Positions 5,051-9,573 of a stretch of 64,000 bases of DNA are shown one piece after another. The stretch is taken from the NCBI GenBank assembly GCA_963664825.1, contig OY761614.1:1280001-1344000 (forward strand), given 5' to 3'. Source of the DNA: an uncultured Holophaga sp. (GTDB lineage Bacteria > Acidobacteriota > Holophagae > Holophagales > Holophagaceae). Within the stretch, counting starts at the first letter, position 1, and each line of letters begins with the position of its first letter. Under the pieces are notes generated by a model. It made no database searches. It had not been told where the DNA came from and saw nothing but the letters and a program-made list of their open reading frames with translations. The translations under genes were made by a program, and so were the position numbers.

Positions 5051-6958
5051 CTACAGCCCCTTCAGAACGGCCCTGGCGAAATCCGGCAGGGAGGGATCCC
5101 GGGCGCCCATGATGAGCACCAGGTCCCCTTCTTGAGCTTCCGAAACGAGGCGCTCCACCAGCCACTCCCGGGAGGGTGCGAATTCAGCCAGGGTGCCCTT
5201 TTCACCTATTTCGCACACGATCTCGGCAGACGAGAAATCCCGGTTCGCCGTCCCCCCCGCGTAGTAGATCTCCAGCATCCAGAGCCGGTCCTGGGGCCGC
5301 AATTCGGCCTGGAAGGTCGCCACGAAATCCGGACGCAGGAAGCGCATGGGGGCGTATCCATGGGGCTGGAAGACGGCCAGCACACGCTTGGCGCGCATCT
5401 GGGCGGTGCGGATTGAAGCGGCCACCTTGGCCGGATTGTGGCCGAAATCGTCCACCACCTGTACGCCCCCCTTCGTGCCCAGGACCTGAAACCGCCGCGC
5501 CACGCCTTGGAAGGCCGCCAGAGGAGCCACCATCTCCTGCAAGGGCACTCCCACCGCGGCGCAGGCGGCGAGCGCCGCCAGGGCGTTCTCCACATTGTGT
5601 CTGCCGGGCACGGGGAGACTGAAGGTGATGCCATTCACCCGGAAGGTCGAGCCCTCAGCCTCCAGGACCAGTTCCTCACCCCGCAGCCCCGCTTCCTTGC
5701 CGAATCCGAAGACCGTGGCCCCCGAGGCCAGCTCCGTCAGGTTCTCGGCCTCGCCCACCACGAAGGCCTCCTGGACGCGGCCCCGGAAGATGCGGAACAT
5801 CTCGGCCACCTCGGATTCGGCCTTGTGGTCCTTCTGGAGGTTCAAGACCACGCCCACGGCAGGTTTGTAGCGCACCACCGAACCATCGCTCTCATCGGCC
5901 TCGATGACCAGCAGATCGGAATCCCCCGCCCAGGCGTTGCCCCAGAGACCTTCCCCCTGAAGGGCCACCAGTTCGCCGCCGGTGATGATCGAAGGGCTGC
6001 GCCCTGCCCCCCGCAGGATTTCAAAGACAAGAGCCGCCGTCGTGGATTTGCCGCTGGTGCCCGTGATGGCCAAGGTGCGATGGGAGGCCACGAGATCGGC
6101 CAGCAGTTCGGAGCGGTGGATGAGCGGCACGCCCAGGCGCCGCGCTTCAGAGAAATCGGGCACTGTATCTTCCACCGCCGTGGAATAGACCACGCCGCTG
6201 CAATCCCCGGCCACGCCGCAGCCATCCTGGGGCAGGATAGAGATGCCCAATTGTGCCAGCCTCCCCCGGGCCGCCGCGTTCTGGCCTCGGTCGAAGGCGC
6301 GATCACTGCCGCTCACGGGCCTCCCCTTCATGGCCCAGAATTGCGCCAGGGCGCTCATGCCGCTGCCGCCCACTCCCGCGAAGTGGAGGCGGCCCGAACC
6401 TGACCCCTCGACCACCACCAGCGCATCACCTTCCCTGGCCAGCCCGAAGAGTTCCACCACATCGGCATTGGCCATGCGCAGGCAGCCGTGGGAGACGGCC
6501 TCCCCCAATCGGTGTTCCTGGTTGGTGCCGTGGATGTAGATGTAGCGCTCCAGCGTGTCGTGATCGGCACCCCGGTTGAGGCCTTCCTCCAGGCCCTCCA
6601 GCGTGAGGACCCGCGTGAGGATCAGGTCCTCCTCCCGGGTTTCGCCCTGCCAGATTTCCCCCGTAGCGATCTGGCTGCGGAAGATCATGCCGCCGGGAGC
6701 GCCCTCTCCAAGCTTGCGATGGATCCTGTGCCAGCCCAGAGGCGTCTGGTACGAGCCCTCCTGATAGCCGAGGCCATTCAGGGCCGTGGAGATGGGGTAG
6801 TCCCCGAGCAGCTCCCCGTGTTCCAGCAGGCCCATGCGCTGCCGCGCCACATCCACCACCAACAGGCGGTTCGGCAGGGCCCGGAAGGGACTTCCGGGTC
6901 TGGAGAGGGCGGCAAGCCCCAGAGATCGGTAGTGGGCGGCGAGAACGGGATTGGCCAT
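5051..6958 (-). CDS. Fusion of a YkuD (L,D-transpeptidase/carboxypeptidase) domain and a MurC/Mpl-like Mur ligase
   Basis: N-terminal TPLGWH...YIYIHGT...SHGCLRM; after linker GSGSG: HFAGVGGSGMSALA, GTSGKSTT, EADESDGS, PGRHNVEN, RRFQ, DDFGHNP, FQPHGY. Confidence 0.9.
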   Translation of the reverse strand: MANPVLAAHYRSLGLAALSRPGSPFRALPNRLLVVDVARQRMGLLEHGELLGDYPISTALNGLGYQEGSYQTPLGWHRIHRKLGEGAPGGMIFRSQIATGEIWQGETREEDLILTRVLTLEGLEEGLNRGADHDTLERYIYIHGTNQEHRLGEAVSHGCLRMANADVVELFGLAREGDALVVVEGSGSGRLHFAGVGGSGMSALAQFWAMKGRPVSGSDRAFDRGQNAAARGRLAQLGISILPQDGCGVAGDCSGVVYSTAVEDTVPDFSEARRLGVPLIHRSELLADLVASHRTLAITGTSGKSTTAALVFEILRGAGRSPSIITGGELVALQGEGLWGNAWAGDSDLLVIEADESDGSVVRYKPAVGVVLNLQKDHKAESEVAEMFRIFRGRVQEAFVVGEAENLTELASGATVFGFGKEAGLRGEELVLEAEGSTFRVNGITFSLPVPGRHNVENALAALAACAAVGVPLQEMVAPLAAFQGVARRFQVLGTKGGVQVVDDFGHNPAKVAASIRTAQMRAKRVLAVFQPHGYAPMRFLRPDFVATFQAELRPQDRLWMLEIYYAGGTANRDFSSAEIVCEIGEKGTLAEFAPSREWLVERLVSEAQEGDLVLIMGARDPSLPDFARAVLKGL

Positions 6959-7005
6959 GGGTAAGGGTACCGCGGGGAACCCCACCCGGGGACTGCCAGT
7001 GCGCG

Positions 7006-7572
7006 TCAGCCCATGGAAGCGGTGGGTTGCAATTCCAGATGGGATTGTCCGGTCTCCAGCCCGGGCGCAGCCCCAGGGATGTGAGCCTGGATGAAGGAGA
7101 CAACCTCCGCTGGTTTTATGCCGAGAACAATGGCGAATTCGTCGTACAACAGCTTTTCCGCGGTGGTCATGATCTTGGTATCGGTAGCGTTGAGCCTCTT
7201 ACCCGTCCCCTTTTTGCGGTCCTTCTCGAGGTACAGGGTCTTTATCAACTTCACCAATTCATGGCAATCGCCACTGTGAAGTTTCACGGAATACTCCCGA
7301 TCCCGCTCGCGATCATCACTGATCCAGATGGATTCTTCCTCAGGCATCCCTTGGATCAAACTATTTATTTCGTCCCTGGTCAGGATCGGCCGGATCTTGG
7401 CCACGAGTTCCTCATCGGTTGTGGAGACATAGGTGATCGAATTGGAATCAAAAAAAGGTTTAAGAACATAATATTCTTGTTCCTCGGCGGAACGAAATTT
7501 TTCGGTTCTTATATCCACGATCTTGCATACACCTATCGTATTATACACGACACTGTCATTGATATTAAACAT
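7006..7572 (-). CDS. CarD-family transcription factor
   Basis: MFNINDSVVY...GVCKIVDI...YYVLKP...AEKLLYDEFAIVLGI; visibly AT-rich compared with its neighbours. Confidence 0.85.
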   Translation of the reverse strand: MFNINDSVVYNTIGVCKIVDIRTEKFRSAEEQEYYVLKPFFDSNSITYVSTTDEELVAKIRPILTRDEINSLIQGMPEEESIWISDDRERDREYSVKLHSGDCHELVKLIKTLYLEKDRKKGTGKRLNATDTKIMTTAEKLLYDEFAIVLGIKPAEVVSFIQAHIPGAAPGLETGQSHLELQPTASMG

Positions 7573-7941
7573 TTTTATCACCAGTGCCTGCCTAAAAGCC
7601 ATGTACTTATGGCAGCAAGCAATCCTCTGTAATCAGTATAGCAAAAATGACTCTTCGCTGTAAGGTTCCAGGACAAACCCTGTGGAACCGATTCCCACTT
7701 GGATGTGGAAGTTGTCCCAACCCTGGCTTCGGAATGACCCTGGAGGGAATGGGGTGGGCATGGGAACTCCTGGGCACGACGAGGGCTTGAACGCCTCACG
7801 GAACAGCGAGTAGGGGTTGCGGGAAGCGATGTGTTTGCATGAAACTATCGGTTAACTCCTGCCAAGCAGCCTTGGGAAAGACTCGCGGCAGCTTAAAAGG
7901 CGCATCTCCTTGACGAACCTATATTCCCAGCGAGGACACCC

Positions 7942-9573
7942 ATGCCCAACGCCATCTTCAATCTGCCGGATTCCTACAACGAACCCGTCCTCACGTACGC
8001 CCCCGGCAGCCCGGAACGTGTGCATCTGAAGGCCGAACTGGATCGCCAATACAATCTCGAAGTGGACATCCCACTCATCATCGGCGGCCAGGAAATCCGC
8101 ACGGGACGCCTCCGGGAGGTGGTCTGTCCCCACGAGCACGGCCACGTGCTGGCCCACTACCACGAGGCCGGAGAAGCCGAAATCCAGATGGCCATCGATG
8201 CCGCCCTCCAGGCCAAGAGCGATTGGGAGGCCATGCCCTGGGAGGACCGGGCCGCCATCTTCCAGCGAATGGCCAGCCTCATCTCCACGAAATACCGCTA
8301 CATCCTCAACGCCGCCACCATGCTCAACCAGTCCAAGAACGCCCACCAGGCGGAGGTCGATTCCACCTGCGAGACGGCGGACTTCTTCCGCTACAACGCC
8401 AAGTACATGGAGCAGATCTACCGGAACCAGCCCTTGTCGAACCCCAATATCTGGAACCGCATGCAGTACCGGGCCCTGGAAGGCTTCGTCTTCGCCGTCA
8501 CCCCCTTCAACTTCACCGCCATCGCCGCCAACCTAGCCACGGCACCGGCCATGATGGGCAATACCATCGTGTGGAAGCCCGCTTCCACAGCTATCCTCTC
8601 CAACTACTACCTGATGCAGCTCTACCGGGAAGCCGGTCTGCCGGATGGAGTCATCAACTTCGTGCCCTCTCGGGGTTCGGTCATCGGTCAGATCGTGATG
8701 GGCCACGAGAGCTTCGCGGGCCTTCACTTCACGGGGTCCACGGAGACCTTCCGCTCCATGTGGAAGACCGCCGGGGAAAACCTGGACCGCTACCGCACCT
8801 ATCCCCGCCTGGTGGGTGAGACCGGCGGCAAGGACTACATCTTCGTCCATAACAGTGCGGAACTCCCGGCGGCGGCCACGGCCATCGTGCGGGGTTCCTT
8901 CGAATACCAGGGGCAGAAGTGCTCGGCCTGCTCCCGGGTCTATGTGCCGGCCTCCACCTGGCCCGAGCTGAAGAGGCTCCTCCTGGAGCTCGTGGGCCAG
9001 ATCCAGATGGGCGACGTGCGGGACTTCCGCAATCTCATGAACGCCGTCATCGACGAGACGAGCTTCAATGCCACGATGGGCTACATCGAGAAGGCCCGGG
9101 CATCCGAAAAGGCCGAGATCATCGCCGGAGGCAAGGGCGACAAGTCCACGGGCTACTTCATCGAGCCCACGGTCATCGTCACCACCGATCCCCACTTCCT
9201 CACCATGGAGGAGGAGATCTTCGCCCCCGTGGTCACCATCTACGTCTATGACGACGGGAAGCTGGAAGAGACCCTCCAGACCCTGGATCAGACCTCGCCC
9301 TACGCCCTCACGGGCAGCATCTTCGCCCGGGACCGCCAGGTCATCAATCACCTGTCGGAGGTCCTGGCCAATACCGCCGGGAATTTCTACATCAACGACA
9401 AGTGCACCGGCGCCATGGTGGGCCACCAGCCCTTCGGAGGCGCCCGGGCCTCGGGCACCAACGACAAGGCGGGGAGTTTCCTGAACCTGGTGCGCTGGAC
9501 CTCCCCCCGGGCCATCATGGAAAACTTCGCGTCCCCCACGGGACTCGGATATCCCTCCATGGACGAGGCCTGA
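7942..9573 (+). CDS. pruA: 1-pyrroline-5-carboxylate (glutamate-semialdehyde) dehydrogenase
   Basis: NEPVLTYAPGSPER, PFNFTAI, FTGST, GETGGKD, FEYQGQKCSACSR, EEIFAP, QPFGGARASGTNDKAG. Confidence 0.95.
   Translation: MPNAIFNLPDSYNEPVLTYAPGSPERVHLKAELDRQYNLEVDIPLIIGGQEIRTGRLREVVCPHEHGHVLAHYHEAGEAEIQMAIDAALQAKSDWEAMPWEDRAAIFQRMASLISTKYRYILNAATMLNQSKNAHQAEVDSTCETADFFRYNAKYMEQIYRNQPLSNPNIWNRMQYRALEGFVFAVTPFNFTAIAANLATAPAMMGNTIVWKPASTAILSNYYLMQLYREAGLPDGVINFVPSRGSVIGQIVMGHESFAGLHFTGSTETFRSMWKTAGENLDRYRTYPRLVGETGGKDYIFVHNSAELPAAATAIVRGSFEYQGQKCSACSRVYVPASTWPELKRLLLELVGQIQMGDVRDFRNLMNAVIDETSFNATMGYIEKARASEKAEIIAGGKGDKSTGYFIEPTVIVTTDPHFLTMEEEIFAPVVTIYVYDDGKLEETLQTLDQTSPYALTGSIFARDRQVINHLSEVLANTAGNFYINDKCTGAMVGHQPFGGARASGTNDKAGSFLNLVRWTSPRAIMENFASPTGLGYPSMDEA

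Follow-up and report, generated by a model that had tools for sequence, protein, structure and literature searches.

An ElsL-like YkuD domain fused to an unnamed Mur ligase in Holophaga: a candidate one-protein enzyme for stem-peptide recycling

Recycling of peptidoglycan stem peptides, in which LdcA or ElsL acts first and Mpl second, is known mainly from Proteobacteria. In MurC and Mpl, the N-terminal Mur ligase domain binds UDP-MurNAc (UDP-linked N-acetylmuramic acid), and the C-terminal domain of Mur ligases binds the incoming amino acid or peptide. Here we describe a gene in a stretch of 64,000 nucleotides from an uncultured Holophaga sp. of the Acidobacteriota (contig OY761614.1, positions 1,280,001 to 1,344,000; hereafter the window), the product of which joins an ElsL-like YkuD domain to a complete Mur ligase. 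We put at roughly 0.6 the probability that the fusion is a cytoplasmic bifunctional enzyme, an analogue of Mpl, that would trim tetrapeptide to tripeptide and ligate the tripeptide to UDP-MurNAc. A trim-and-ligate function in one protein had been put forward in a first-pass annotation made from the letters of the window, and the comparative evidence (the ElsL type of the YkuD half, a separate murC, the genome content, the linkage of the ligase clade to L,D-carboxypeptidases and its near-exclusivity with Mpl) lends it support.

ElsL has been shown to be a recycling L,D-carboxypeptidase and not a cross-linking enzyme, and when recycling fails tetrapeptides enter the cell-wall precursors and both beta-lactam susceptibility and cell shape are affected (Dai et al. 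2021, PMC8649774). Many bacteria are without homologues of both LdcA and Mpl and presumably break down their stem peptides (Caulobacter preprint, 10.1101/2025.10.15.682734). Our literature search, which covered few subscription journals, returned no description of a YkuD-ligase fusion or of the variant ligase clade described below.

Architecture of the fusion and its ElsL-like half

The protein is encoded by a single uninterrupted open reading frame (ORF) of 635 codons, counted from an ATG, and consists of the YkuD domain, a six-residue linker and a complete three-domain Mur ligase. Its features are as follows.

5051..6958, minus strand: whole fusion gene, 635 codons plus the stop at 5051-5053 (alternative GTG start at 6985)
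6413..6868, minus strand: YkuD (L,D-transpeptidase-fold) catalytic domain of ElsL type, residues 31-182 (Pfam PF03734, 69 bits; NCBIfam NF040925, 137 bits)
6524..6535, minus strand: IHGT motif, residues 142-145, with the catalytic His143, invariant in 36 aligned fusions
6473..6493, minus strand: SHGCLRM motif, residues 156-162, with the catalytic Cys159; S156, H157, G158 and C159 invariant in 36 aligned fusions
6392..6409, minus strand: linker EGSGSG, residues 184-189, from the translation; the AlphaFold2 model is confident across it
6080..6388, minus strand: Mur ligase N-terminal domain, residues 191-293, with the glycine-rich GVGGSGMS (Pfam PF01225)
5561..6067, minus strand: Mur ligase middle (ATP-binding) domain, residues 298-466 (Pfam PF08245)
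Inside the middle domain, minus strand: P-loop GTSGKST (residues 300-306) and EADESDGS (353-360), invariant in family alignments
5099..5497, minus strand: Mur ligase C-terminal domain, residues 488-620 (Pfam PF02875)
5432..5452, minus strand: DDFGHNP motif, residues 503-509, aligned to H. influenzae MurC D344-P350
5348..5371, minus strand: FQPHGYAP motif, residues 530-537, aligned to H. influenzae MurC F373-R380

All four domains exceed their Pfam gathering scores, and the scan of the fusion protein returned no further Pfam domain. The ATG start is consistent with where orthologues begin when 36 fusion proteins (44-79% identity to the window's protein) are aligned; the alternative GTG would add nine residues. 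His143, the Ser156-His157-Gly158-Cys159 stretch, the ligase P-loop and EADESD are invariant across this alignment. Both the architecture and the intact catalytic and ATP-binding motifs are direct observations. By hydropathy only, the first 60 residues contain no segment resembling a signal peptide or a membrane helix, the maximum Kyte-Doolittle mean over 19 residues being 0.75. A full-length AlphaFold2 model built from the 36-protein alignment has a mean predicted local distance difference test score (pLDDT) of 89.8 and a predicted template modeling score (pTM) of 0.87. The first-pass annotation had claimed one uninterrupted YkuD-Mur ligase ORF, a set of motifs with an intact catalytic His and Cys, and the absence of a signal peptide or transmembrane helix; the frame and its four domains, the translation with its invariant residues and the hydropathy profile bear out all three.

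By far the best YkuD-family match of the N-terminal half is the NCBIfam ElsL model NF040925, with 137 bits (E 4.7e-40) over 151 of 164 model positions, as compared with 21 bits for LdtE, the runner-up among the YkuD models. This difference supports the earlier assignment of the YkuD part to the ElsL type, although the score lies below the curated cutoff of 270 bits, which belongs to a model of the narrow 'exception' type. ElsL orthologues have been defined as single-domain proteins of 105-200 residues, proteins longer than 200 residues being left out (Dai et al. 2021, mBio, PMC8649774); the fusion, with 635 residues, lies outside this range, and fusions would therefore have been removed from that survey by its ceiling. 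In a sequence search of the PDB with the YkuD part, the match was to B. subtilis YkuD (E 3e-7) and covered no more than its C-terminal catalytic motif, which is silent on carboxypeptidase versus transpeptidase activity.

The same four domains, in proteins of 624-675 residues, are found in all of the best 120 clusters at 90% identity in a collection of 5.8 billion proteins. Where named, these clusters belong to Geothrix, Holophaga or Holophagaceae, and they are annotated as 'L,D-transpeptidase family protein' or as 'UDP-N-acetylmuramate--alanine ligase'. Moreover, each of the 12 genomes searched from the window's family, its own included, has an ElsL-like match in an open frame of at least 649 residues. 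Because the architecture recurs in the 120 clusters and the 12 family genomes, the fusion is real and conserved, and is no assembly artefact.

A third ligase clade and its amino-acid pocket

The ligase half falls below the cutoffs of both named models, scoring 297.7 bits on the murC model TIGR01082 (cutoff 335.1) and 100.7 bits on the mpl model TIGR01081 (cutoff 388.7). Its identity is 27-35% to canonical MurC and 24-31% to Mpl, as against 38-72% to numerous ligases about 460 residues long that were found by an exhaustive search of representatives. The motif DD[FY][AG]HNP is present in 128 of the best 150 representative hits, and the form ending in HHP, characteristic of MurC and Mpl, in none of them. 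In a tree of 113 rows, obtained by a quick IQ-TREE search (LG+G4) and rooted on a distant outgroup of two MurD sequences, canonical MurC forms one clade (19 rows; support of 95 by the Shimodaira-Hasegawa-like approximate likelihood ratio test, SH-aLRT) and Mpl its sister clade (8 rows, SH-aLRT 100; 95 for the pair), and the variant ligases form a third clade outside MurC and Mpl (83 rows, SH-aLRT 96), which holds every YkuD-fused, YkuD-adjacent and LdcA-fused row. The membership of the window's ligase in this clade is observed directly: it carries the clade motifs DD[FY][AG]HNP and [FYW]QPHG[FY]xP, as DDFGHNP and FQPHGYAP, and scores 621 bits on the clade profile, against at most 356 for canonical MurC. 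The Mpl-specific motifs are (S/T)AFFDKRSK and, in the C-terminal domain, EPRSNT (Das et al. 2011, PMC3060825); the window's translation contains no AFFDK string and has QPHGYA at the EPRSNT position. By sequence comparison, then, the ligase is neither MurC nor Mpl and belongs to a third clade, large and unnamed. The first description of it as 'MurC/Mpl-like' stands insofar as it is a complete Mur ligase nearest to MurC, but not as a placement, since the tree assigns it to neither family. An ESM Atlas look-up with the ligase part gave generic 'MurC family' clusters only.

In H. influenzae MurC, L-Ala is contacted by Tyr346, His348, His376, Arg377 and Arg380 (Das et al. 2011, PMC3060825). Aligned to 1gqq/1p3d, on which the pocket argument rests, the window's ligase has Phe, His, His, Gly and Pro at these positions: in DDFGHNP, Tyr346 is replaced by Phe and His349 by Asn with His348 kept, and in FQPHGYAP, Arg377 is replaced by Gly and Arg380 by Pro with His376 kept. 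The tallies for three of the positions, taken from the alignment used for the tree, are as follows.

Arg380: canonical MurC (19 rows), R 19; Mpl (8 rows), R 7 and K 1; variant clade (83 rows), P 77, S 5 and A 1
Arg377: canonical MurC (19 rows), R 12, L 6 and Q 1; Mpl (8 rows), S 8; variant clade (83 rows), G 78 and A 5
Tyr346: canonical MurC (19 rows), Y 19; Mpl (8 rows), F 8; variant clade (83 rows), F 53 and Y 30

The pocket is thus visibly altered, and the loss of both arginines would fit a substrate whose first carboxyl group is engaged in a peptide bond. The series Gly/Pro, Ala/Ser and Arg/Arg at positions 377 and 380 provides a handle on how a Mur ligase chooses between an amino acid and a peptide.

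Two further observations concern other ligases met in the survey. The locus L189 (G024:C202:1650-3300; row x1_G024 of the tree) encodes a divergent ligase with the motifs SDYGHHP and FEPHQAR that the tree places beside the Mpl clade as its sister (SH-aLRT 90); its genome holds a variant ligase as well. In genomes of Verrucomicrobiota and relatives (G258-G303), canonical MurC-like matches of about 285-335 bits lie mostly in open frames of about 760-900 residues and may represent fusions to another enzyme, as in the chlamydial MurC/Ddl.

Linkage to L,D-carboxypeptidases and distribution against Mpl

A search of GTDB species genomes with the whole protein returned 79 loci: 29 with both parts, 48 with standalone ElsL-like genes, one (L023) in which the fusion is cut by the end of the contig and one (L019) with ligase pieces only. 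Among the 29, both parts share a single ORF in 17 (Holophagae, Syntrophorhabdus/Syntrophus and some metagenome-assembled genomes, MAGs, labeled otherwise), ykuD lies directly upstream as a separate or, often, overlapping gene in 11 (Fibrobacterota, Eisenbacteria and Elusimicrobiota), and one has a premature stop. At L017:8001-9842, in a MAG labeled Alphaproteobacteria, the fusion frame stops early, at 9359, within the ligase part, which reflects a fault of the assembly if the gene is not a pseudogene. A second search used the standalone ligases as a profile pattern and gave at least 80 loci (among at least 600 matches) in Bacteroidota, Elusimicrobiota, Nitrospirota, Planctomycetota, Armatimonadota, Myxococcota and others; an ElsL-like gene is fused or directly upstream at 21 of the 80 variant-ligase loci listed, and none of these 80 has an LdcA match.

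LdcA is nonetheless joined to the same clade elsewhere. P0269 (742 residues) is a variant ligase followed at its C-terminus by a complete LdcA, with the N- and C-domains of Peptidase_S66; the clusters P0296 and P0297 share this architecture, and at the locus L085 a separate ldcA gene comes after the ligase gene and overlaps it. Given the well-supported branches of the tree, the YkuD-fused state must have changed at least twice, and the LdcA-fused state at least twice as well. Because two unrelated enzymes of the same activity are linked to one ligase clade, by fusion and by operon, the double linkage is the strongest argument that the ligase would use their product. Adjacency is not universal, since none of the 48 standalone ElsL-like genes, from Verrucomicrobiota and relatives, has a ligase match in flanks of up to 8 kb on each side. 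Likewise, no YkuD or S66 domain was found in 105 ORFs beside 53 of the 59 variant-ligase loci that have no YkuD match, a scan that left out six short loci (L116, L118, L142, L147, L172 and L175); the recurrent neighbors of standalone variant ligases are dapB (8 loci), a convergent murD (3), DUF7935 (3) and an amidohydrolase (4). A fusion of Mpl to a carboxypeptidase was also considered for the phylum, but the one long frame tested (L203, 665 residues) has no extra domain.

The distribution of the clade is complementary to that of Mpl. The phylum was sampled with 201 genomes, of which 126 have an Mpl-like gene (E <= 1e-70), 75 of them above the curated cutoff; the tallies of this sample include the unpublished genomes G207 and G079, both Mpl-positive (124 of 199 without them), and, for the variant-clade profile, G104, which supplies a canonical MurC row, but no conclusion depends on these three. 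The variant-clade profile is bimodal in this sample, with 572-621 bits in 13 genomes (the 12 of the window's family and G066) and at most 356 elsewhere. None of the 12 family genomes has an Mpl-like gene, and the proportions are 0 of 13 variant-bearing genomes against 126 of the 188 others. ElsL-like genes occur in 22 genomes of the phylum, fused in 12 and standalone in 10, and seven of the ten have an Mpl-like gene. Similarly, the 48 genomes with a standalone ElsL comprise 37 with an Mpl-like gene, two with a variant ligase, none with both and nine with neither; the two variant-type ligases, both in genomes without Mpl, score 482.6 and 418.2 bits, the latter being intermediate and less certain. 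When 50 of the at least 80 genomes from the second search were surveyed, Mpl was found in one; two MurC-like genes are present in 42, and one above the murC cutoff in 40. LdcA is present in 23 of the 50 and an ElsL-like gene in 12, with one or the other in 34. These counts describe a pattern and are no statistical test, most genomes being MAGs of unstated completeness and relatives representing few independent lineages, but within them the variant clade and Mpl almost never co-occur and substitute for one another. As a separate matter, 51 of the 126 Mpl-like genes of the phylum fall below the NCBIfam Mpl cutoff (259-384 bits), so that automatic annotation probably leaves many of them unnamed.

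The content of the window's own genome (G000), one contig of 3.47 Mb that is 96.6% complete, agrees with this pattern. A separate canonical murC, the presence of which leaves the fused ligase spare and favors the proposed function, lies at C1:380186-381520 and scores 560 bits, against 298.9 for the fused ligase in the same genome search (cutoff 335.1); the five other fusion-bearing genomes tested all have a canonical murC too (436-554 bits). The fused YkuD is the only YkuD domain of the genome. No Mpl above the cutoff was found in it, the best hits of the mpl model being the two MurC-like genes, and no Peptidase_S66/LdcA. The AmpG permease (435.8 bits, cutoff 350), AnmK (260 bits) and a NagZ-like gene of glycoside hydrolase family 3 (98.7 bits) are all present, and therefore the uptake and sugar branches of recycling are in place while the usual peptide branch is missing.

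The genes around the fusion offer no functional clue, there being no cell-wall genes in its flanks: the neighbors are a CarD-like gene, MscS, cydAB, an RsmI-type methylase, an aldehyde dehydrogenase and FTCD. The earlier remark that the ligase is not in a division and cell wall (dcw) cluster is accordingly true, yet it does not discriminate, because the canonical murC is likewise about 2.5 Mb from murD and murE (C1:2867758-2873267). Synteny with mscS and cydA is kept in the four closest relatives only, and the CarD-like gene in none. The latter, a CarD/CdnL-like gene (window positions 7006-7602, minus strand; Pfam CarD_TRCF_RID and CarD_C), lies directly upstream of the fusion in a patch of low GC content, about 51-59% against about 64% around it; tblastn against 17 related loci did not match it, and it may have been acquired recently.

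Proposed function, alternatives and relation to known systems

In the function that we propose, the YkuD domain would trim the tetrapeptide, either free or still attached to sugar, to a tripeptide, which the third-clade ligase would attach to UDP-MurNAc at the expense of ATP; the product, UDP-MurNAc-tripeptide, would re-enter synthesis at MurF. In the window's family, the ligase would thus replace Mpl and the YkuD domain would replace LdcA. The order could also be reversed with the same product, the tetrapeptide being ligated first and the UDP-MurNAc-tetrapeptide then trimmed. Both activities are inferred, as are the use of a peptide as substrate and the sequence in which trimming and ligation take place.

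Several observations weigh against this proposal. The L-Ala-site residues His348 and His376 are retained in the window's ligase, and Arg377 is not universal even in canonical MurC (Leu in 6 of 19 rows, Gln in 1 of 19). The best matches of the ligase among solved structures are MurC, its predicted model superposes better on product-bound MurC (1p3d, target TM score 0.85) than on Mpl (3hn7, 0.63), and it is likewise nearer to the murC than to the mpl model. No AmpD-type Amidase_2 gene, for an amidase that would free stem peptides from anhMurNAc, was found in the window's genome; neither LdcA nor an ElsL-like gene was found in 16 of the 50 variant-bearing genomes; and the genomes counted are incompletely independent, as noted above. 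Most pointed, however, is the case of the Elusimicrobiota. Eight of the 50 variant-bearing genomes have only one MurC-like gene, and five of these are Elusimicrobiota of 1.3-1.5 Mb (G018, G020, G025, G027 and G032; loci L113, L117, L125, L127 and L134) in which the sole MurC-like gene is a member of the clade, a scan at a loose threshold returning matches to the variant, MurD-like and MurE/MurF-like genes only. The sole variant ligase lies downstream of dapB in at least four of the five loci and faces murD in one (L125) to three of them. The five rows form a clade nested among Elusimicrobiota variants that coexist with canonical MurC, and it is in exactly these five that Ala at 377 and Ser at 380 take the place of Gly and Pro. 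Because it is the sole MurC-like gene there, the scaffold is evidently able to add L-Ala and to serve as MurC, apparently after the pocket changes, and the five genomes look like cases of replacement of the canonical MurC. In line with this, E. coli mpl, when carried on a multicopy plasmid, is reported to complement murC(ts) (Das et al. 2011, PMC3060825). A recycling role, which the first-pass annotation had extended to the variant ligase family, is therefore not assignable to the whole clade; the linkage to LdcA and YkuD and the near-exclusivity with Mpl speak for that role, but not in the five sole-MurC Elusimicrobiota.

These observations invite the reading of the ligase as a true MurC, a second isozyme for the addition of L-Ala, the fusion serving only to co-regulate or co-localize de novo synthesis with trimming while the peptides are degraded to amino acids. 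Among the named families MurC is indeed nearest in sequence and fold, the five Elusimicrobiota have a clade member as their sole MurC-like gene, and bacteria without Mpl are held to degrade their stem peptides (10.1101/2025.10.15.682734). We nevertheless consider such an isozyme unlikely. It would give no metabolic reason for joining two unrelated L,D-carboxypeptidases to one ligase clade, would leave unexplained both the near-exclusivity with Mpl and the loss of Arg380 (Arg in all 19 canonical MurC rows), and would stand beside a canonical MurC already present in the window's own genome; moreover, the sole-ligase clade differs at exactly the two hallmark pocket positions. Of much the same low probability, in our estimate, is a ligase of dual specificity for L-Ala and stem peptides, the fused form favoring peptides and reduced genomes using it as their only MurC. 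The complementation by mpl just mentioned and the weak L-Ala activity of P. arcticus Mpl (Das et al. 2011, PMC3060825) provide precedents, the clade holds both L,D-carboxypeptidase-linked and sole-MurC members, and the pocket keeps His348 and His376 while losing both arginines. Nothing speaks directly against dual specificity, although there would be no need for L-Ala activity where a canonical MurC coexists, as in 42 of the 50 genomes, and the sole-MurC members have pocket substitutions of their own that suggest specialization. Less probable still is another chemistry altogether, either a different amino acid, peptide or nucleotide-sugar acid as the ligase substrate or a YkuD domain acting as a cytoplasmic transpeptidase or exchange enzyme. 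An uncharacterized clade as deep as the MurC/Mpl split leaves room for it, and YkuD enzymes can catalyze exchange reactions (Dai et al. 2021, PMC8649774), but the ligase retains the motifs that typify MurC and Mpl in the N-terminal and ATP domains, the link to LdcA points specifically to cleavage between meso-diaminopimelate and D-Ala, and ElsL itself acts in recycling and not in cross-linking (Dai et al. 2021, PMC8649774). Re-ligation of the trimmed peptide by the fusion therefore remains the reading that we prefer.

Taken jointly, the data suggest, at somewhat less than even odds, a broader picture in which the clade equals the MurC/Mpl split in depth and forms a third, ancient line of UDP-MurNAc ligases whose main task is to re-ligate stem peptides, a line that was fused to YkuD at least twice and to LdcA separately and that displaced the essential MurC in reduced Elusimicrobiaceae after two pocket changes. 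This tentative lineage would span Acidobacteriota-Holophagae, Bacteroidota, Fibrobacterota, Elusimicrobiota, Nitrospirota, Planctomycetota, Desulfobacterota and Armatimonadota. If the proposal is true, a ligase clade that substitutes for Mpl would revise the picture of stem-peptide breakdown in Mpl-less bacteria and would suggest a recycling route there. It would also provide a function for hundreds of genes now named 'UDP-N-acetylmuramate--alanine ligase' or 'L,D-transpeptidase family protein', and a natural one-protein system in which to study a coupling of trimming to ligation that avoids toxic tetrapeptide precursors.

Among the known systems, ElsL of Acinetobacter baumannii resembles the window's domain in being a cytoplasmic YkuD fold without a signal peptide or peptidoglycan-binding domain, and its catalytic His and Cys are kept; however, ElsL is a single-domain protein that works with a separate canonical Mpl, whereas the window's YkuD is part of a 635-residue fusion in a genome without Mpl. 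LdcA of E. coli (Peptidase_S66) has the same activity as that proposed for the window's YkuD but an unrelated serine peptidase fold; in some low-GC alphaproteobacterial MAGs, LdcA is found fused to members of this ligase clade or next to them. MurC (TIGR01082; PDB 1p3d, 2f00), of the named families the one nearest in sequence and predicted fold, shares with the window's ligase the three domains, the N-terminal and ATP-domain motifs, the P-loop and DESD; the window's ligase differs in scoring below the cutoff, in lying outside the MurC clade and in being a second copy beside a canonical murC. Mpl (E. coli b4233; P. arcticus PDB 3hn7; TIGR01081) has the same three-domain layout and, like the window's ligase, is without Arg377 and has Phe at the position of Tyr346, but the window's ligase is below the mpl cutoff, belongs to another clade and has QPHGYA in place of the EPRSNT-type motif. 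The chlamydial bifunctional MurC/Ddl (NF011171) provides an earlier example of a fusion between a MurC-type ligase and another enzyme of cell-wall precursors; its partner, however, is a D-Ala-D-Ala ligase at the C-terminus that serves de novo synthesis, whereas in the window's fusion the YkuD domain is at the N-terminus and the proposed role is in recycling, and the window's protein matches the MurC half only of that model (171 bits, cutoff 1015). Seen against these systems, the fusion would represent a new variation on a known recycling pathway.

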